The position numbers were made by a program, and so were the translations under genes. From NCBI GenBank assembly GCA_964438105.1, contig CAYTJT010000002.1, forward strand, positions 1 through 42,176: a DNA stretch of 42,176 bases, in the 5' to 3' direction. Positions 3,697 through 16,568 of the stretch are shown one piece after another (within the stretch, counting starts at the first letter, position 1; each line of letters starts with the position of its first letter). This DNA comes from an uncultured Rhodothermales bacterium (lineage in GTDB: Bacteria; Bacteroidota; Rhodothermia; Rhodothermales; JANQRZ01). The notes beneath the pieces are model-generated. The model saw nothing but the letters and a program-made list of their open reading frames with translations, ran no database searches and was not told the origin of the DNA.

Positions 3697-4512
3697 ATGG
3701 TAAAGCCGCGAACTCCAGATGCGTTTGCAGCAATAATTAAGACGGCTGCGAACATTTCGAGAGCTACAACTGGTGGAGAGGTAGCTCATCAAGCTCAAGC
3801 CGAAGCCTCGCTCTTTTTACTCAAGAACCTGCTGTCCTGCCTGAGCATCCGGAGAATCAGTGCCCCAGTCAGGGACGCACGAGATCCTGTCCAGGCGCCG
3901 TATTACGATTACAGCTCTATGCAGGTGCTAGTGCGTAGCCTCGCGGAGGGCTACGTGAATATGTACAACCTATTGATAGCTCCTGATTCTCCCGAGGAAC
4001 TTGATTTCGGAATGTTGAGGTGGGAGTTGCATGGACTTGTAGAGCGTCAAAGAGTTGCGGGGCAAATCAACTCCAAGCATCCCAAGCTAGTCTCGGAAGC
4101 AAAGCGCATTGACAAGCTTAGGAGCAGAATTGAAGCTCATCAGATGTATAAGGCATTTGGGCCGAAGCATCAGAAAGCCATTCTGGAGTCGAAAAGCTGG
4201 ACAGACCTTTCTTTTGATAAGCTTGCTGCACGCACTGATATCCACCCATCGTGGACGAATGCTACCTACAAGTATCTATCAGGATATGCACATGCACAGC
4301 GGCTCTCACTCCTTCAGGTTGGATCAATAAGAGGCTCTGAGGAGGCGAGGCAGATGATGAGAGTCCCTTTGAGTTACGCCGAATTGTACCTGAGCCTCAC
4401 AGTGCTCCAATTTATCAAGTGCTGTCCACAGTGCTCAAGTTTAGTCGATAACGAAGGCGCTTATCTGTGCGGCTATTGGGATTTGTTGAGCCGAGAGAGC
4501 ATTAATCCCTGA
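3697..4512 (+). CDS. Low-GC foreign hypothetical protein, DUF5677-like
   Basis: 271-aa ORF with many A/T-ending codons unlike its neighbours; VRSLAEGYVN and YKYLSGYAH motifs. Confidence 0.7.
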   Translation: MVKPRTPDAFAAIIKTAANISRATTGGEVAHQAQAEASLFLLKNLLSCLSIRRISAPVRDARDPVQAPYYDYSSMQVLVRSLAEGYVNMYNLLIAPDSPEELDFGMLRWELHGLVERQRVAGQINSKHPKLVSEAKRIDKLRSRIEAHQMYKAFGPKHQKAILESKSWTDLSFDKLAARTDIHPSWTNATYKYLSGYAHAQRLSLLQVGSIRGSEEARQMMRVPLSYAELYLSLTVLQFIKCCPQCSSLVDNEGAYLCGYWDLLSRESINP

Positions 4513-4556
4513 GGATCTGAACGCGAGCTTGTTCTAACCATACTTCCTTGCCACAT

Positions 4557-5921
4557 ATGACTCTTCATAACAGCCGCCGTCTCTTCGCCGAAGCCCAGCA
4601 CGTCATCCCCGGCGGGGTGAACTCGCCCGTGCGCGCGTTCAAAAGCGTCGGGGGAACGCCCGTGTTCATCGAACGCGCCCAGGGGGCGCACCTCCGCGAC
4701 GCCGACGGCAACGACTACATCGATTACGTTGGGAGCTGGGGGCCGATGCTCTTCGGCCACACGCACCCCGACGTGGTCCGCGCCGTGCAGGAGGCCGCCA
4801 CGCGCTCGACCTCGTTCGGCGCGCCGACCGACGTCGAGATCCGCCTCGCCGAGCTCGTCGTCGAGCTCGTGCCGAGCGTGGAGAAGGTGCGGTTCGTGAA
4901 CTCCGGCACCGAGGCGACGATGAGCGCCGTCCGCCTCGCGCGGGGCTACACCGGCCGCGACAAGTTCATCAAGTTCGAGGGGCACTACCACGGCCACGGC
5001 GACTTCTTCCTCATCGCCGCCGGGTCGGGCGCGATGACGCACGGCGAGCCGAACTCGCCCGGCGTCACGCCCGGCAACGCCCGCGACACCCTCCTCGCCA
5101 AATACAACGACCTCGACTCCGTCCGCACGCTCGTCGAGGCGCACCGGGGCGAGGTGGCCGCGATCATCGTCGAGCCGATCGCGGGGAACATGGGCTGCGT
5201 CCCGCCCGAGCCGGGGTTCCTCCAGGGCCTCCGCGACGTGTGCGACGCCCACGGGATCGTGCTCATCTTCGACGAGGTGATGACCGGCTTCCGCGTGGCG
5301 CCCGGCGGCGCGCAGTGGCTCTACGACGTCGTGCCCGACCTCACCACGCTCGGCAAGATCATCGGCGGCGGGCTGCCGGTCGGGGCCTACGGCGGCAAGC
5401 GCGAGATCATGGACTACGTCTCGCCGAGCGGCCCCGTCTACCAGGCCGGCACGCTCTCCGGCAATCCGCTTGCGATGCACGCAGGCTACGTGGTCCTCCG
5501 CAAGATTCTCGACGATCTCGACGTGTACCACCGACTGGGCGAGTACGGACGCGTGATGGAAGAGGGCACGCGGCGCACGCTCGACGCGCTCGGGCTCGAC
5601 CTCTACACGACGCGCGTCGGCTCGATGGGGTGCCTGTTCTTCACCCCAGCGCGCGTCGTCGACTTCGCCGGCGCGCAGCGGTGCGATACGAAGCGCTACG
5701 GCCGGTACTTCCATGCGATGCTGGAGGAGGGCGTCTACCTCGCCCCGAGCCAGTTCGAGGCGTATTTCATCTCCGACGCGCACGGCGCGAAAGAGCTCGC
5801 CGACACGCTCAACGCGCAGCGCCGCGCGCTCGAAAAAGCCTACGACCCCGACTGGACCCCCGCCGCCACCGTCCCCGCCGACGCGCCCGTCGACGAGCAG
5901 GAAGACCCGGCGCTCGGCTAG
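4557..5921 (+). CDS. hemL: Glutamate-1-semialdehyde 2,1-aminomutase
   Basis: IPGGVNSPVRAF, NSGTEATM, KFEGHYHG, FDEVMTGFR, LGKIIGGGLP, YQAGTLSGNP; ATG at 4557 preferred. Confidence 0.97.
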   Translation: MTLHNSRRLFAEAQHVIPGGVNSPVRAFKSVGGTPVFIERAQGAHLRDADGNDYIDYVGSWGPMLFGHTHPDVVRAVQEAATRSTSFGAPTDVEIRLAELVVELVPSVEKVRFVNSGTEATMSAVRLARGYTGRDKFIKFEGHYHGHGDFFLIAAGSGAMTHGEPNSPGVTPGNARDTLLAKYNDLDSVRTLVEAHRGEVAAIIVEPIAGNMGCVPPEPGFLQGLRDVCDAHGIVLIFDEVMTGFRVAPGGAQWLYDVVPDLTTLGKIIGGGLPVGAYGGKREIMDYVSPSGPVYQAGTLSGNPLAMHAGYVVLRKILDDLDVYHRLGEYGRVMEEGTRRTLDALGLDLYTTRVGSMGCLFFTPARVVDFAGAQRCDTKRYGRYFHAMLEEGVYLAPSQFEAYFISDAHGAKELADTLNAQRRALEKAYDPDWTPAATVPADAPVDEQEDPALG

Positions 5922-8967: not shown

Positions 8968-9123
8968 GGCAGGCACCGTTGCACTTGCCATACCTACGCC
9001 GGATGCGCGCCAACGTTGCAGGGGATTGGAAACGTAAGGTTCCCCTAACAGGTCGGGCACCGGGGGCGAGAACAGAGCGCGCCGCTTTCGGCCGGGCGCC
9101 GTATCACGTCGTCCAGAAACTAG

Positions 9124-9153
9124 AAAGCCTCCCTGCGCAGTGCAGGGAGGCTT
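9124..9153 (-). terminator. Intrinsic terminator downstream of tRNA-Met
   Basis: Perfect 12-bp stem aagcctccctgc/gcagggaggctt with a 5-nt loop and a short T run on the minus strand. Confidence 0.75.
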
Positions 9154-9173
9154 CGGGAAAAGCAGAGGGGGTG

Positions 9174-9247
9174 TGGCGCGGGAGAGACTTGAACTCTCGA
9201 CCTCCGGGTTATGAATCCGACGCTCTAACCAGCTGAGCTACCGCACC
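9174..9247 (-). tRNA. tRNA-Met (CAT), probably elongator; CCA not encoded
   Basis: GGTGCGGTAGCTCAGCTGGTTAGAGC..TTCATAA..GTTCAAGTC..CCGCGCCA cloverleaf with a paired 1-72 position. Confidence 0.93.
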
Positions 9248-9287
9248 GGCTCGGGGAGACGACGGGCGCCTCCCGAAAGCAGAGCAA

Positions 9288-9316
9288 AAGATAGCGCCGT
9301 ACGCAGCGCGGTTCAA
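9288..9316 (-). promoter_or_regulatory. Sigma70-type promoter of tRNA-Met
   Basis: Minus strand TTGAAC-N17-TATCTT(TTG). Confidence 0.6.
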
Positions 9317-9471
9317 GCGCCGCCGAGGCCGGGACATGAAGCCGCGCCGAAAACGAACGCGGCGCTCGCCGTCGGCCCGGTGCGAGGCCTCGGGGCACCG
9401 CCGCCGACGAGGTCCGCGGGCTATATTCGAGCCGTCGCCAACAACGAGACCGCCGGGACGGGCAAGCCGAT

Positions 9472-10647
9472 ATGGGATGGAGTGAGGTCATCGGACAGCA
9501 GCGGGCCGTGGAGACCCTGCAGCGCGCGCTCACGAGCGGGCGCGTCGCCCACGCCTACCTCTTCCACGGGCCGGACGGCGTCGGCAAGCGGGCGACCGCG
9601 CTCGCCTTCGCGCAGGCGCTGCAGTGCCAGCGGCGGGCCGTGGGCGAGGCCGCCCCCTGCGGGGCCTGCTTGGCGTGCCAGAAAGTCGACCGCATGGTGC
9701 ACCCCGACGTGCACCTCTACCTCCCGCAGCCCAACGACGCTTCGGCGGGCGACGTCGCCGCGCGGCTCCAGCGGCTCGCCGGGGACGCCTACGCCGAGGT
9801 CGACTTCCGCCGCCGCCCCTCGCTCGACGACCCGAGCAAAAGCTCGAACAAGCACACGATCTACAACGTCGACCGCGTGCGCGAGATCACGCGCGACCTC
9901 CGCTACAGCCCGGCCGAGGGGCGCTTCAAAGTCGCCGTGCTCACCGACGCCGACGCGATGAACGAGCCGTCGGCGAACGCCTTCCTCAAGGGCTTGGAGG
10001 AGCCGACCGAGCAGACGGTGATCGTCCTCACCGCCAGCCGCCCGGACCGCCTCCTCCCGACGATCCTCTCGCGCTGCCAACGGCTCCGCTTCGACGCGCT
10101 CGCGCCCGACGCGATCGAGCGGGCGCTCGTCGCGCGGGACGGGCTGGAGCCCGAGCGGGCCGCGTTCCTCGCGCGGATGGCCGACGGCTCGTACACCCGT
10201 GCCCTCACGCTCGCCGGGAGCGAGGACCTCGCCCGCCAGCGCGCCCACGTCGTCGCGTTCTTCCGCGCGGCCTTCACCGGCTCCGGCGCCCAACTCGACG
10301 ACCTCATCGCCGACCTCGCCGGGCTCGGGCGCGAGGGGCTCAAGGGCGTGCTCGGGCTGATGCTCGGGTGGGTGCGCGACCTCGTGCTCGCCCGCCACGC
10401 CGGGGCCGACGCCGCCCTCGTCAACGTGGACCAGCAAGCCAGCGTGCTCCGCTTCGTCGACAACCTCCCGGACGCGCGGCTCGACGCGCTCGCCGACCTC
10501 GTCGAGCACGCCACCGAGCTCGTCGAGCGCAACGTGAACGCGACGCTCGTGCTGACCGTGCTCGCCGACGCGCTGCGGGCGGCGATGCAGGGGCGCGAGC
10601 GGCACCGGCTGTTCGCCCCGCTCGCAGACCCGGCGCCGGCCGGTTGA
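9472..10647 (+). CDS. holB: DNA polymerase III subunit delta'
   Basis: HAYLFHGPDGVGK, CGACLAC, HPDV, ANAFLKGLEEP, LLPTILSRC. Confidence 0.93.
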   Translation: MGWSEVIGQQRAVETLQRALTSGRVAHAYLFHGPDGVGKRATALAFAQALQCQRRAVGEAAPCGACLACQKVDRMVHPDVHLYLPQPNDASAGDVAARLQRLAGDAYAEVDFRRRPSLDDPSKSSNKHTIYNVDRVREITRDLRYSPAEGRFKVAVLTDADAMNEPSANAFLKGLEEPTEQTVIVLTASRPDRLLPTILSRCQRLRFDALAPDAIERALVARDGLEPERAAFLARMADGSYTRALTLAGSEDLARQRAHVVAFFRAAFTGSGAQLDDLIADLAGLGREGLKGVLGLMLGWVRDLVLARHAGADAALVNVDQQASVLRFVDNLPDARLDALADLVEHATELVERNVNATLVLTVLADALRAAMQGRERHRLFAPLADPAPAG

Positions 10648-10758
10648 GGGCGCGGGCGTTCGAAGGAGCCGGGAAGAGCCGTCGATTGGGCGGAGGGCGA
10701 GAAACGTCCGCCCAGATCGAACGTACCGCACCCCTCCACGTCTCACCGCCCGTCGCTC

Positions 10759-11667
10759 ATGCCGTACTCCGCCGAGATCAGCCGCACGTCGCCCGCGGCC
10801 ATCGTCTTCCTGCTCGACCAGTCCGCGTCCATGAAGGACCCCTTCGGCGGGGCCGAGGAGCGGGGCGACGCCGCGCCGAGCAAAGCGCGCGTGCTCGCCG
10901 ACACCGTCAACCGGCTGATCCAGAACCTCGTCCTCCGCTGCGCGAAAGAGGACGGCGTGCGCGACTACTTCTCCGTCGGGGTGATCGGCTACGGCGACCG
11001 CGTGCAGCCGCTGCTGCGACTCGATGACGACGCGTTGGACGACGGGGGCGAAACGGCCGTCGCGCACGTCGCCGAACTCATCCCCGTCTCCGCGCTCGCC
11101 GAGCGCCCGCTCCGCATCGAGGAGCGGCTCAAGCGCGTGCCCAAGCCTGCCCCCGCGGAGGCAGGGGGCGACGACGGGTTCGCCGAGCAGCGGACGAAGG
11201 TGCCCGTCTGGTTCGATCCCGAAGCCCGCAACGGCACGCCGATGTGCCAGGCGCTCGACTACGCCACCCAGGTCGTCCGGCAGTGGGTGGACCTCCACCC
11301 GCGCTCGTACCCGCCCATCGTGATCAACGTGACCGACGGCGAGGCCACCGACGGCGACCCGCTCCGTTTCGCTCAGACGCTCCGGGAGTACGGCACGGCC
11401 GACGGCGAGACGCTGCTGCTGAACGTCCACCTGTCGTCGTCCACGGAGGCTGCGATCGAGCTGCCGGACACGATCGAGGGGCTGCCGGACGAGCACGCGC
11501 GTAGGCTCTTCCAGATGTCGAGCACGCTCCCGTTCTCGATGCGCGCCGCCGCCGAGGCCGAGGGCTACGCGGTCGGCCTCGACACGCGCGGGTTCATCTT
11601 CAACGCCGACCCCGCGGCCCTCGTCCGCTTTCTCGAAATCGGCACGCGGCCGAGCACGCTGCGCTGA
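10759..11667 (+). CDS. vWA (TerY/YegL-like) domain protein
   Basis: MIDAS motif LLDQSASM, NGTPM, PPIVINVTDGE; first gene of a vWA-PP2C-kinase triad. Confidence 0.88.
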   Translation: MPYSAEISRTSPAAIVFLLDQSASMKDPFGGAEERGDAAPSKARVLADTVNRLIQNLVLRCAKEDGVRDYFSVGVIGYGDRVQPLLRLDDDALDDGGETAVAHVAELIPVSALAERPLRIEERLKRVPKPAPAEAGGDDGFAEQRTKVPVWFDPEARNGTPMCQALDYATQVVRQWVDLHPRSYPPIVINVTDGEATDGDPLRFAQTLREYGTADGETLLLNVHLSSSTEAAIELPDTIEGLPDEHARRLFQMSSTLPFSMRAAAEAEGYAVGLDTRGFIFNADPAALVRFLEIGTRPSTLR

Positions 11668-11702
11668 TCCTCCCCCGATCGTTTCACCATCGCCCCCCGT
11701 CC

Positions 11703-12416
11703 ATGCCCCCTTTCGTGTCCGACGTTCGCACCCACTGGCTGCCCAAGCAGGGCCACACGGCCGACGAGTACGAAGACGCCACCGCGCAGCCGGTCGAAGC
11801 GCCGGACGGGACGATCCGCGCGGCCCTCGCCGACGGCGCTACCGAAGCGGCGTTCGCCGGGGCGTGGGCGCGCACGCTCGTCGAGGAGTTCGTCGCGGCC
11901 GACGTGACGGTGCCCGAGACGTTCCACGAGGCGATCCACCGGACGCGGCGCGTGTTCGGGAGCCGCATCGCGGAGCACGCGACCGCGCTGCCGTGGTACG
12001 CGGCGGCGAAGGCGGAAGAGGGCGCGTTCGCCGCCTTTATCGGCCTCGTGCTCTACCCGAGCGGGGCGTGGCGGGCCGTCGCCGTCGGCGACTGCTGCCT
12101 GTTCCACCTCCGCGACGGCGACCTCCTCGAAGCCTGGCCCATCGACGACCCCGACGACTTCGGCAACCGCCCCGACCTCCTCGGCAGCCGCCTCGACATG
12201 AGCCAGCCCGAGGCGCAGACGACCTCGGCGCAGTGGGGGCCGGGCGACCGCTTCCTGCTCGCCTCCGACGCCCTCGCGGCCTACCTCCTCGCTAACGAGC
12301 CCGCCGCCGCCGCCGGGCTCGACGCCCCCGCCTTCGCGTCGTTCGTCGAGACGGCGCGCTCACGCGGGCTTCGGAACGACGACGTGACGCTCGTCGAACT
12401 CGCGATGCGGGCCTAG
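11703..12416 (+). CDS. PP2C-like protein phosphatase (YegK-like)
   Basis: EYEDA, ALADGATE, VGDCCLF, LLASDAL, RNDDVT. Confidence 0.88.
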   Translation: MPPFVSDVRTHWLPKQGHTADEYEDATAQPVEAPDGTIRAALADGATEAAFAGAWARTLVEEFVAADVTVPETFHEAIHRTRRVFGSRIAEHATALPWYAAAKAEEGAFAAFIGLVLYPSGAWRAVAVGDCCLFHLRDGDLLEAWPIDDPDDFGNRPDLLGSRLDMSQPEAQTTSAQWGPGDRFLLASDALAAYLLANEPAAAAGLDAPAFASFVETARSRGLRNDDVTLVELAMRA

Positions 12417-12430
12417 GTGCGTGGGGGACG

Positions 12431-14266
12431 ATGACCGACTACCCGACCCCCAGCGACTACCAGGAGGCGCTGCAGTTTCCTGCGACGGCGTTCCTCGACC
12501 CGGTGCTCGCGGCGGGCACGCCGGCCCAGGGCCCGCTCGGCCTGCCGCAGCCCATCACCGGAGCGTTCGCCGCCGTCTTCCCCGTCGACACGCCGGGCGG
12601 CCGGTTCGCGGTGCGGTGCTTTCTGACTCGGGTGGACGACCAGGCCGCGCGGTACCGCGCCGTCGCCCGCCACCTCGCCGAGGCAGCACTGCCGCACACG
12701 GTCGCGTTCGACTACCAGCCCGAGGGTGTCCGGGTCGGCGGGAAGACGTACCCCGTGCTGAAGATGGCGTGGGCCGAGGGCGAGGGGCTGGCCGCGTTCG
12801 TCGAGCGGCATCGCCTCGACGCGGCCACGCTGCGCGCCCTCGCCGAGGCGTGGCGCACCCTCCTCGCCGATCTCGGAGCGGCGGGCATCGCGCACGGCGA
12901 TTTGCAGCACGGCAACGTGCTCGTGCAGGATAACGACGGCGCGCTCCGGCTCGTGCTCGTCGACTACGACACCCTCTTCGTGCCCGCGCTCGCGGGGCGG
13001 ACGAGCGCCGAGGTCGGCCACCGCAACTACCAGCACCCCGACCGCACGGAGACGGACTTCGACGCGTCGCTCGATCACTTCCCCGGGCTCGTCGTCTACA
13101 CCGCCCTCCGAGCGCTCGAGGCGCAGCCGGACCTCTGGGCCGAGTTCAGCACGGGCGAGAACCTGCTGTTCCAGGCGGGCGACTTCTACGATCCGCAGGC
13201 GTCGCCGCTCTTCGCCGCGCTCCGGCAGATCGACGGGGTGCGACCGCTCGCGGAGGCCCTCGCGACGGCGTGCTATCTCGAACCCCGTGCGGTGCCGTCG
13301 TTGGAGGACGTGCTGCGCGGTGAGGTGCCAGGCACGTCGCGCCGAGCGGCCCGAGCGGCGAAACGAGCCGCCGGTGACGGCCGGGCGGCGGCGCGCAGCG
13401 GCTTCGAGGCGTGGGCGCTGCCGGCGTTCGTTGCAGCGGTGGCCGTGCTCGTCGCGGTCGGGGCGGCGGCCGGGTGGAAGTGGGCCGTTATTGCAACGAT
13501 TATCGTCACCGCTGCTGGGGGATGGGCGGTGCAGCGCGGCTACGGTTCGCAGTCCACCGTACGGCGGCAGCGGCGGACGGCGCGCGAGGCCGCCGTGCTG
13601 ACACAGTGGATCGCCGACCTCGACGACTCGCGCCGCGGCCTCGCGCGGGAGCGCCGCGACTTCCTCGACCGGCTCGATACGTTCCGCGCGGAGCGGCTCG
13701 CAGAGGTGCAGGCGCGCGCGCTCGAAGGACACCTCCGGCACCACTTCATCGGCGAGCTCGACACGGTCGAGGGGGTGGGGCACCGGGCCGTCGTGCGGCT
13801 CAAAGCCGTGGGTATCCGCAACGCGTTCCACGCCTCCCCGGACCGAGTGGCCGAGGCGCGCGGCATCACGTCCGAGTCGCGCCGGCTCATCGGCGCGTGG
13901 CGCGACGGCCTCGCCGCCGAGGCCGCCGCCGACGTGCCCGGCGACCTCTCGCCCGCCGAAGAGCAGCGGCTCAACCGGCAGATCGAGCGCTGCCTCCAAT
14001 CGCTCGACGCCGAGGCGGCCCGCGTCGCCGCCAAAGCCGAGGTGCAGCGGGGCGAGCTCGCCCGCATCCGCGCGCAGCACGGCGCCCTCCCGACGCTCAC
14101 GCTGAGCAGGTACGTTCTCTACCTACTCCGCGTCCGGCCGCTGCCGCAGACGTCCTCCGAGCGCGCGGCGCCCATCCTCCAGCGGCCGGGCGCCGACCGG
14201 CAGCCGCCCGCTCGGCCGTCCGGCCCCGAACCGCTCCCCGACGCGGCGTGGTGGGAGCAGGCGTGA
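12431..14266 (+). CDS. Ser/Thr kinase-like protein with two TM helices, coiled coil and HhH-like C-terminus (YegI-like)
   Basis: GAFAAVF, AVRCF, HGDLQHGN, VDYD, GHRNYQHP; hydrophobic hairpin WALPAFVAAV..IIVTAAGGW; VEGVGHRAVVRLKAVGI. Confidence 0.85.
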   Translation: MTDYPTPSDYQEALQFPATAFLDPVLAAGTPAQGPLGLPQPITGAFAAVFPVDTPGGRFAVRCFLTRVDDQAARYRAVARHLAEAALPHTVAFDYQPEGVRVGGKTYPVLKMAWAEGEGLAAFVERHRLDAATLRALAEAWRTLLADLGAAGIAHGDLQHGNVLVQDNDGALRLVLVDYDTLFVPALAGRTSAEVGHRNYQHPDRTETDFDASLDHFPGLVVYTALRALEAQPDLWAEFSTGENLLFQAGDFYDPQASPLFAALRQIDGVRPLAEALATACYLEPRAVPSLEDVLRGEVPGTSRRAARAAKRAAGDGRAAARSGFEAWALPAFVAAVAVLVAVGAAAGWKWAVIATIIVTAAGGWAVQRGYGSQSTVRRQRRTAREAAVLTQWIADLDDSRRGLARERRDFLDRLDTFRAERLAEVQARALEGHLRHHFIGELDTVEGVGHRAVVRLKAVGIRNAFHASPDRVAEARGITSESRRLIGAWRDGLAAEAAADVPGDLSPAEEQRLNRQIERCLQSLDAEAARVAAKAEVQRGELARIRAQHGALPTLTLSRYVLYLLRVRPLPQTSSERAAPILQRPGADRQPPARPSGPEPLPDAAWWEQA

Positions 14267-14270
14267 CGGG

Positions 14271-15038
14271 TCAATCGCCGCCCCGCACGCAGCGGAAGCC
14301 GATCGTTTCGGAGCGAACGTCCTGCAGCGTGCTGGCGCGGGTGTAGACGGGCAGCTGCGCTTCGGGCGAGCGGAAGCTGCCGCCGCGGACCATCCTCAAG
14401 TCGTCCCGGGGGCCGCCGCCGAGGTCGTACCACTCCGGCTCGGCGCCGGGCTCGGGGTAGGACTGGTAGAACGCGCCGATCCATTCGTAGGCGTTGCCGG
14501 TCATGTCTTAGAGCCCGAGCGGGTTCGGCGCGCGGCGGGCGGCCGTCGTCGTGCGGAGGGGCTCGCTCTCGTGGAACCACGCGTAGCGGGCGAGGTCGCC
14601 GAGGCTGTCGGTGCCGGCGTAGCGCTGGGCAGCGGGGCCGCCGCGCGCGGCCCACTCCCACTCGCGCTCGTTCGGGAGGCGGGCGTCGATCCAGTCGCAG
14701 AAGGCAGCGGCCTCGTCCCACGTCACGAGCACGACGGCGCGCGCACCACGGCCGAAGTCGCCGCTGTCGGGCCGGGCGACGCCGTCGGTTGCGTCGGCGA
14801 AGGGGTCGAACTCGGCGAAGGTGACCTCGCGCGCCATCATCTCGAACGGCTCGACGGTGACGGGGTGGACGGGGAGGGCGTACGGGTCCTCATCGTCGGG
14901 GGCGCCCATCGTGAAGGTGCCACCCAGAATCGATACGAAGACGGGCTCGGGTTTGGGCGGCCCGGAGCGCAGAAGGGCACAGCCGGAGGCGACGAGGAGC
15001 AGGGCGAGGGAGAGAGGGCGAACGGGCCGATAGCGCAT
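14271..15038 (-). pseudogene. Formylglycine-generating-enzyme (FGE-sulfatase/SUMF1) family lipoprotein with in-frame TAA at 14508-14510
   Basis: Lipobox VASGC, GGTFTMG, RLPNEREWEWAARGG, NPLGL*DMTGNAYEW, RGGSF, IGFRC; both ORF halves are in the same frame. Confidence 0.85.
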
Positions 15039-15121
15039 GAAAGGCGAGAGGGGGGCAGAGTCGAAGGGGATGGTCGCAGACGAGACACGTGGCAGCCGGC
15101 AACGTTGCTGCCTTTCGAGGC

Positions 15122-15246
15122 AAGGCGACGAACGGCCAGACCGTCGCGAGTTCGGAGGGATACGGGTCGAGCGTGGTGCCGCGAACAGGATCGCCTCGGT
15201 GCAGAAGGACACGCCCTCCGCCGATATCGTCGATGAGTCGGAGTAG
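15122..15246 (+). pseudogene. YegP/DUF1508 family remnant, frameshifted
   Basis: KATNGQTVASSEGYGS in one frame continues as ERGAANRIASVQKDTPSADIVDESE* in another; shift near 15168. Confidence 0.65.
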
Positions 15247-15386
15247 GGCGCGTCCGTATCACGTCGTCCGCGGTGCGGCGTCACTCGTACGTGCTGTGGA
15301 CGACGTGCGCTCCCGCCCGGATGTGCCAGCGGCCCCCGGCCAGGACGCGATGCACGTCGGCATTGAGGAGGGGTAACAAGCGCGGG

Positions 15387-16568
15387 TCAGGTAGGAGAAG
15401 AAGGAGAAAGCACCGCCTCGAAGCGGTCTGCGATGGCTTCGATGTCGAAGTGACGCTCGGCATAGTCGCGTGCGTTCGCGCCGAAGCGCTCGCGGAGCTG
15501 GGCGCCCCCGGCGAGCGCTTCGGCGCTGCGGACGAAGCCTCCGACGTCGCTCGGTGGCACCACGAGGCCCGCCTGGTTCTTCGCGACGATGCGCGAGGCC
15601 AGGTTCTCGGGAGGGACCGCGAGGAGGAGCGACCGCCCGGCGCAGAGGTACGTCAGCACCTTTGAGGGAACGGAGAATACCCCGGCGTCGGGCTCCAGCA
15701 CGGCCACGAGCACGTCCGCCGCGCCGAGCACGTCGGGCAGCTCTTCGAAGGGCTGGAAGGGGAGCAGGCGCAGGTTCGGCCGTGACCCCTGGCGCTCGCG
15801 GAGCCACTCGCTCCCCGCCCCCTGCGAGACGACCACGACCTCGGCGTCGGGAAACCGCTCGGCGAGGGCGAGGAGCAGGGCCGGGTTGTGCTTCATCCCG
15901 AGGGTGCCCGAGTAGACGAAGCGAAGGCCGTCCGAGAGCCCCTGGCGCTGGGCCCAAGCGTTATCGCGCGGGCGGGGCGGCATCTCCTCGAGCGGGGCCC
16001 AGTTGGGGATGGTCTGCACCCGTGGGTGCGCGCCGATGGACGGGACGGCCTCGCGGAAGTCGTCCGTGATGAGCACGAGGGCGTCGCTCCGTTCCAGCAG
16101 CGACCGCTCCATGCGGGCGTAGTGCGCCCCCACGACGGCGCCGAGCACGGGGACCCTCTCACGCAGCAGGCGCTCTGCAGCCAAGCCGATTAAGTCTTGT
16201 ACCCAGAACACGAAACGGGCGCTTACCTCGCGTGCCACGTTAAGTAAGCGTCGCTGCGCGTCAAGCGGGGTGTTCGCCGAAAGGACCGCGTCGGGGCGGA
16301 AATCCCGCGGGGCCGACGCGGCGAGGCGGCCGTAGGCGCGCTCCTGCTGCCAGCGCTTTACGAACGCCTGCTTGTCGATGGGCTCGGGGAGCGAGATGCC
16401 CCGGATTTCGAGCGTGTCGGGATCGTCCGGCTGCAGCGCCATCGCCTGAGGCGTCGTCGGGAGCGAGGCGCAGTAGGCGTGGAGGACGGTGTGCCCGCGC
16501 CGGGCGAGCGCTCGGCTGAGTTGGATCTGAAACGGGTGTCCGGCGAAGTCGTGGACGAGGATGCGCAT
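15387..16568 (-). CDS. GT4 family glycosyltransferase (WcaI-like)
   Basis: FWVQDL, IPNWA, VYSGTLGMKH, LPFQP, SVPSKVLTYL. Confidence 0.88.
   Translation of the reverse strand: MRILVHDFAGHPFQIQLSRALARRGHTVLHAYCASLPTTPQAMALQPDDPDTLEIRGISLPEPIDKQAFVKRWQQERAYGRLAASAPRDFRPDAVLSANTPLDAQRRLLNVAREVSARFVFWVQDLIGLAAERLLRERVPVLGAVVGAHYARMERSLLERSDALVLITDDFREAVPSIGAHPRVQTIPNWAPLEEMPPRPRDNAWAQRQGLSDGLRFVYSGTLGMKHNPALLLALAERFPDAEVVVVSQGAGSEWLRERQGSRPNLRLLPFQPFEELPDVLGAADVLVAVLEPDAGVFSVPSKVLTYLCAGRSLLLAVPPENLASRIVAKNQAGLVVPPSDVGGFVRSAEALAGGAQLRERFGANARDYAERHFDIEAIADRFEAVLSPSSPT

Follow-up and report, generated by a model that had tools for sequence, protein, structure and literature searches.

We analysed a window of 42,176 nucleotides from an uncultured Rhodothermales bacterium (GenBank assembly GCA_964438105.1, contig CAYTJT010000002.1, positions 1 to 42,176, forward strand), focusing on three genes at positions 10,759 to 14,266 that encode a von Willebrand factor A (vWA) protein, a PP2C-type phosphatase and a putative membrane-anchored protein kinase. 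As a first-pass annotation of the window had described, the three genes are co-oriented on the + strand and follow holB; the open reading frame (ORF) coordinates gave the same gaps of 35 bp (vWA/PP2C) and 14 bp (PP2C/kinase), and the vWA gene starts 111 bp after the end of holB. The genes of the locus and the predicted parts of the kinase, each with its basis, were as follows.

9472..10647, + strand: holB (DNA polymerase III delta'), context outside the system; Pfam DNA_pol3_delta2, 1.1e-47.
10759..11667, + strand: TerY-type vWA protein, 302 amino acids (aa); PADLOC TerY PDLC02224 and Pfam VWA.
11703..12416, + strand: PP2C-type Ser/Thr phosphatase, 237 aa; PADLOC PP2C PDLC02222 and Pfam PP2C_2.
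12431..14266, + strand: full-length kinase ORF, 611 aa, the third gene of the triad.
12431..13345, + strand: Ser/Thr kinase domain, residues 1-305; PADLOC STK_OB.
13409..13537, + strand: predicted two-helix membrane hairpin with a GWKW turn, residues 327-369; hydropathy and basic flanks.
13556..13738, + strand: predicted outgoing stalk helix, residues 376-436, after a basic VRRQRR juxtamembrane motif; helix 5-65 of the tail model.
13748..13927, + strand: predicted double helix-hairpin-helix (HhH) domain at the stalk tip, residues 440-499; domain model, Foldseek and hhalign.
13952..14086, + strand: predicted returning stalk helix, residues 508-552, after a conserved LSPAEE motif; helix 137-181 of the tail model and conserved alignment columns.
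14102..14263, + strand: hydrophobic helix YVLYLLRV, proline-rich linker and terminal WWE; helix 187-194 of the tail model.

The vWA protein matched the PADLOC TerY model (4.7e-88) from residue 1 to 302 over the whole profile (1-277/277), as well as Pfam VWA (7.8e-8), and its gene was present as a single copy in the window's own genome. The residues of its metal ion-dependent adhesion site (MIDAS), D20, S22, S24, T160 and D193, were invariant in 52/52 aligned homologues. The phosphatase matched its PADLOC model at 9.8e-22 and Pfam PP2C_2 at 2.8e-6, and D25, D44, G45, D130, D226 and D227 were unchanged in all 41 aligned sequences, the acidic residues being the metal ligands. The kinase matched PADLOC STK_OB PDLC02223 (4.1e-83), with residues 3-304 aligned to positions 2-304 of the 562-position profile, and both the catalytic loop HGDLQHGN and the LVDYD motif were invariant (93/93 sequences). 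The Pfam kinase families all remained below their cut-offs (Kdo 18.9 bits vs 21.3), and NCBIfam gave no match above cut-offs for the triad proteins. The first-pass annotation had named a TerY-P-type triad, and the PADLOC check, in which all three models matched, agrees with that assignment. Judged by these profile matches and motifs, all three proteins are members of the TerY-P family, with intact MIDAS, PP2C and kinase catalytic motifs.

The kinase departs from a textbook catalytic core at one position. The beta3 'VAIK' site reads A-V-[R/K]-C-F across the family, with Arg in 56/93 sequences and Lys in 37/93, and the window kinase carries Arg62 (12614-12616). An Arg at the position of the 'catalytic lysine', beside an invariant catalytic loop, is unusual for an active protein kinase.

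Positions 305-562 of the STK_OB profile were unmatched in the window kinase, so the OB part of the model is absent. The tail that stands there begins with a hydrophobic stretch of 42 residues (327-368; Kyte-Doolittle peak 2.4), with no charged residue between 327 and 349 and with Arg-rich flanks (7 and 5 K+R), and the position of this hairpin was conserved in a 13-sequence alignment. A study (bioRxiv 10.1101/819920) reports that E. coli YegI, which has a homologous tail (see below), was found experimentally to have a two-pass topology with both termini inside. The basic flanks, the tail homology and the YegI topology lead us to predict that the kinase domain and the tail are both cytoplasmic; the placement proposed in the first-pass annotation is thereby supported as a prediction.

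An AlphaFold model of the rest of the tail (residues 372-611, built from 38 homologues) reached a predicted local distance difference test (pLDDT) score of 90.4. It consisted of a 61-residue helix (tail residues 5-65), a small domain (69-128), a 45-residue returning helix (137-181) and a short hydrophobic helix (187-194), with pLDDT of 97-99 in the outgoing helix block and 54-68 in the proline-rich linker after helix 187-194. When the whole tail was compared with 48,161 chains by VIA-align, only antiparallel coiled coils (SMC arms, dynein stalk) were returned, at Z about 10, which is below the tool's caution level for helical folds. The tip domain modelled alone reached pLDDT 95.2, and its top Foldseek rows were all HhH domains: the RAD51 N-terminal lobe, the Pol iota thumb, BAF and the C-terminal domain (CTD) of the RNA polymerase (RNAP) alpha subunit. 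The tip superposed on the RAD51 lobe with a template modelling (TM) score of 0.65-0.72 and a root-mean-square deviation of 1.7-2.1 Å over 60 columns. The E values of these HhH rows, 0.65 or worse, are not significant for so small a domain, and no Foldseek row for the whole tail or the tip alone reached E<=0.001. Pfam HHH_5 matched 9/38 of the aligned homologous tails (best 2.1e-7), and the window's own tail matched no Pfam family at E<=1. According to hydropathy and the models, the kinase tail is a two-pass hairpin followed by an antiparallel coiled coil, a stalk about 9 nm long (61-residue helix), and a double HhH tip, and the HhH fold of the tip is well supported. The domain content given in the first-pass annotation (MIDAS vWA protein, PP2C, and kinase with hairpin, coiled coil and HhH motif) was thus recovered through Pfam and PADLOC matches, invariant motifs, hydropathy and the tail model.

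What the tip recognises is less constrained than its fold, because domains of this kind have DNA as their ligand in some cases and another protein in others. The likeness to the RAD51 lobe, RNAP alpha-CTD and Pol iota thumb is one of fold: RAD51 was also the best match of the tail profile among PDB sequences, but at E 0.15 this is no significant sequence relation, and Rhodothermales tips have lost some of the hairpin glycines. The window tip has GVG and GIT hairpins, tails from other phyla have PGIG and GIG, and the hairpins are degenerate in most Rhodothermales. DNA binding by the tip may be suggested from its fold. Beyond the stalk, most complete Rhodothermales kinases examined end in a proline-rich stretch with a WW motif (WWE in the window, 14126-14263); the motif is absent from the sampled kinases of other phyla, which end at a helix of the F..YLRR.FF type.

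We then considered how common this tail is. A profile search returned 1360 cluster representatives at E<=1e-10 and 2844 at E<=0.001; among 36 sampled matches, 32 carried an STK_OB-type kinase, one a nuclease-like domain and three no PADLOC family. Kinases from other phyla behaved as the window kinase did, with 26/26 matching STK_OB in the kinase half only and most having hydrophobic segments after the kinase domain. In E. coli, the YegL, PphC (YegK) and YegI proteins also form a vWA, PP2C and kinase set at a stable chromosomal locus, and the window tail is homologous to the YegI tail (hhalign 98%, E 3e-13, 124 columns, YegI 480-603; local hidden Markov model E 6e-7). The kinase domains, by contrast, hardly align (hhalign 14%, 67 columns; BLASTP E 0.03), the PADLOC STK_OB model did not match YegI at 1e-5, and YegL (219 aa) is only distantly related to the window vWA protein (302 aa; hhalign 80%, E 1.4e-5). 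The PADLOC TerY model matched none of 14 named control genomes. Since the tails are homologous while the kinase domains are barely alignable and the vWA proteins distant, the same stalk-HhH module appears to serve two very divergent triad families. We therefore consider the window protein a YegI-type membrane kinase by tail architecture, with a kinase domain that is probably non-orthologous to that of YegI, and the hairpin, stalk and HhH tail a common architecture of this kinase family, as judged from profile matches. The first-pass annotation had called the set a divergent variant; that label did not survive the abundance of the tail in the profile search, the predominance of TerY-P-type kinases among the sampled matches and the homology to YegI. 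One protein (P0146, 639 aa) has a tail-like module at residues 126-327 whose partner is a nuclease-like domain (PADLOC 'SNc+LTD', 5.9e-28) in place of a kinase.

The same family membership brings in an explanation that we hold to be plausible but tentative, namely that the triad is a TerY-P system dedicated to phage defence whose vertical retention is incidental. Its stalk and HhH tip would detect incoming phage DNA or a phage protein at the membrane, its kinase would phosphorylate host or phage targets and thereby stop infection, and its PP2C would restrain the kinase in uninfected cells. The three strong PADLOC matches speak for it, as do reports that TerY-P systems protect against T7-like phages and Autographiviridae and that most cells survive (PMC7699616, for the T7-like result of Gao et al. 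2020; 10.1101/2022.08.12.503731, for a P. aeruginosa variant). The window set agrees with the TerY-P system of PADLOC and Gao et al. 2020 in its three genes and their order, and it stands without ter genes. However, the tested systems have an OB-fold kinase tail (PMC10542128), and in the window kinase a membrane hairpin, coiled-coil stalk and HhH domain replace the OB half. A parallel in layout is a triad with a zinc ribbon at the kinase C-terminus (PMC10542128), likewise a vWA, PP2C and kinase set with a presumed nucleic-acid-binding module fused to the kinase; that triad accompanies McrBC-type nucleases, whereas the window triad places its HhH domain on a membrane-anchored stalk and has no nuclease partner in the window. 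Our literature search found no mechanistic study of TerY-P.

The inheritance of the triad was examined in relatives of the window genome. The nearest public loci belonged to Rhodothermales metagenome-assembled genomes (MAGs) and isolates (Salinibacter, Salinivenus, Longibacter, Rhodothermus). A full-length orthologue was present in 15/41 relatives, with identities of 73% within the genus, 63% within the family and about 45% within the order. The triad had the same gene order in 13 of the 14 relatives' loci that were fetched (L024 showed PP2C and kinase only), and holB lay upstream on the same strand in 10/14. Among public loci, holB was seen in 16/26 labelled Rhodothermales vs 0/54 of other phyla. 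In a tree of 93 kinases, the 39 Rhodothermales sequences and L097, also a Rhodothermales MAG, formed one clade (support 1.0). Across 18 genomes, pairwise identity followed that of holB for the kinase (r=0.95), PP2C (r=0.83) and vWA (r=0.79), correlations that are descriptive only because related genomes are not independent. Mean identities in the same genomes were 0.74 for vWA, 0.59 for holB, 0.50 for the kinase and 0.475 for PP2C. This order-wide co-divergence with holB, within a single clade and at a fixed locus, together with a vWA protein more conserved than holB, argues against the anti-phage explanation.

The surroundings of the triad pointed the same way. The window encodes haem synthesis, aceK, an ion channel, tRNA-Met, holB, the triad, a glycosyltransferase, symporters, GGT, a TonB-dependent receptor and PhoU, and Pfam annotation identified no integrase, transposase, ter, metal-resistance or defence family among the window genes. 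PADLOC at E<=1e-12 matched 0/15 flanking window ORFs; over nine Rhodothermales loci the same threshold gave three generic families in 108 ORFs, with no defence or mobile neighbours. The TerD family (PF02342) had no match in the window's own genome, which is 80% complete, and the control search was positive in 2/14 genomes. The view in the first-pass annotation that the triad stands alone, with no ter genes or mobile element nearby, agrees with these counts. In contrast to the TerY-P anti-phage system, the window triad sits on the chromosome, is inherited vertically and lies away from any defence island. Its flanks hold no defence or mobility genes, its presence is clade-wise and its divergence tracks that of holB. 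From these comparisons we conclude that the triad is vertically inherited in a stable housekeeping neighbourhood, and that what is new here is probably its evolutionary pattern, that of an old inherited part of the chromosome and not of a mobile defence island.

Gene order within and around the triad varied among the relatives. In other families (L018, L020, L022, L017, L026, L044, L045), one or two genes, PSP1/RicT-like and for a TPR lipoprotein, separate holB from the vWA gene, and neither is so placed in the window. The position of PSP1 after holB is presumably similar to the holB-yaaT arrangement in Bacillus. Two lineages have other genes inserted between PP2C and the kinase, which keeps its full length (L022 11335-14306; L019 3620-5233): an isocitrate lyase gene (aceA) with a 520-aa XRE-type regulator in one case and a TPR-repeat gene in the other. 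In two species the kinase and its tail fell on two contigs; we rejected this as a real split and attribute it to an assembly break, G135, the one species checked, having both pieces at contig ends.

The position after holB also suggests a role linked to replication or the chromosome, in which the HhH tip would act as a membrane tether or sensor for replicating DNA. The recurrence of holB upstream of Rhodothermales triads and the HhH fold of the tail are in favour of this, but holB is usually one or two unrelated genes away, the triad is interrupted in some genomes, and holB was near none of the 54 loci of other phyla. The linkage to holB is better explained by general regional synteny, since a nearby symporter gene takes part in it as well, and we regard a replication role as very improbable.

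A further proposal comes from the history of the family, as TerY-P was first put forward as a metal-sensing phospho-switch (summarised in PMC10542128). Applied to the window, this would make the triad a metal- or tellurite-type stress sensor, with the TerY MIDAS sensing a divalent metal and gating the kinase/phosphatase pair. The intact, invariant MIDAS is compatible with it, and the strong conservation of the vWA protein fits a fixed chemical ligand. The absence of a TerD-family match in the genome and of metal-resistance genes in the window speaks against it, however, and the stalk and HhH tail would be left without a role. We consider this explanation improbable.

Taking the evidence together, we regard the three genes as a genuine TerY-P triad of a widespread membrane-anchored subtype that became fixed in the chromosome early in the history of Rhodothermales, and we propose as most likely, with a probability of roughly one half, that it acts as a phospho-switch intrinsic to the cell, not as a mobile defence cassette. 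A fixed role in cellular signalling fits better than an arms-race system because the triad arose once, keeps its locus, co-diverges with holB, shows strong constraint on the vWA protein and has non-defence surroundings. In such a switch, the HhH tip would have a ligand near the inner membrane, either DNA or a protein. The signal from the tip may travel along the stalk and hairpin and drive kinase dimerisation and autophosphorylation, for which the second-order kinetics of YegI speak. The kinase would phosphorylate some target, which may be TerY; the TerY MIDAS would recognise a phosphorylated or acidic ligand, and PP2C would reset the switch. Within the order, surveillance of a conserved cellular state, such as DNA or envelope stress, is more likely than an arms-race function. 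We also put forward a more specific form of the proposal, which we rate as rather doubtful: a TerY-P switch may have been domesticated in Rhodothermales as a lineage-core regulator, its HhH-tipped membrane stalk serving a housekeeping purpose, the monitoring of DNA or of a conserved partner at the inner membrane.

Several observations weigh against a fixed signalling role and keep the anti-phage explanation alive. The protection conferred by the tested TerY-P systems means that family membership itself argues for defence. The triad is also non-universal in the order. Among 175 Rhodothermales genomes (completeness of 90% or more, together with that of the window; match threshold E<=1e-40), it matched in 47, and by family in 17/18, 7/7, 3/7, 5/25, 3/15, 0/34 and 0/24; it has been lost in many lineages. 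The first-pass annotation had set a universal, syntenic core triad in relatives against its own defence hypothesis; synteny and vertical inheritance were found across the order, and universality was not. In a sister genus (L114, 6600-14900), the flanks are syntenic and a cyanophycin cluster replaces the triad and the FGE-sulfatase-like gene (described below) between holB and the glycosyltransferase gene. That cluster holds two CphA-like ligases, an S51 peptidase, an amidohydrolase and DUF1508, and its presence in the slot indicates that the triad is dispensable. The degenerate HhH hairpins of most Rhodothermales weaken the DNA-binding step of the proposed mechanism. Finally, defence genes do occur near triads elsewhere. 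Among 12 loci of other phyla, 6 had PADLOC-family neighbours within 8 kb (9/102 ORFs), which matched DpdF-like helicases, a type II restriction endonuclease, MzaA, PDC-S15 and mad3/AriA- and LmuB-like ATPases, some of them generic. The vWA-PP2C-kinase order was kept in 40/54 loci of other phyla, and one Bacillota MAG (L086, 3624-8858) carries two complete triads in tandem.

Annotation pipelines will label the window locus anti-phage, and here the same label covers a triad inherited vertically across an order, with a vWA protein more conserved than a replication gene. This calls for caution in counting defence systems in metagenomes, including those of the microbial-mat and hypersaline habitats of relatives such as Salinibacter. 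If the domestication proposal is correct, TerY-P triads would be general signalling modules, with phage defence one use among others. Rhodothermus and Salinibacter are tractable hosts in which the signals sensed by TerY-P triads, and by stalk-HhH tails of the YegI type, could be studied.

The remaining observations concern the flanks. On the + strand from 9000 to 15400, the scan gave no terminator-like site, and a sigma-70 consensus scan found no promoter, a consensus that says little for this phylum. A convergent FGE-sulfatase-like gene (14271-15284, - strand) ends 4 bp beyond the kinase stop. This gene has an in-frame TAA at 14505-14507 (between PLGL and DMTGNAYEW), and the relative L013 has one continuous frame. 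The letters at the TAA were identical in one contig of run X1 (depth 10.5), and the contigs of two further runs of the same sample end at 14509-14514, possibly a sign of a variant there. Upstream, a DUF5677 gene at 3697-4512 (Pfam 1.9e-12) adjoins the only low-GC kilobase of the window (GC 0.575 at 4001-5000 vs about 0.70 elsewhere), and this region may be a small acquired insert.

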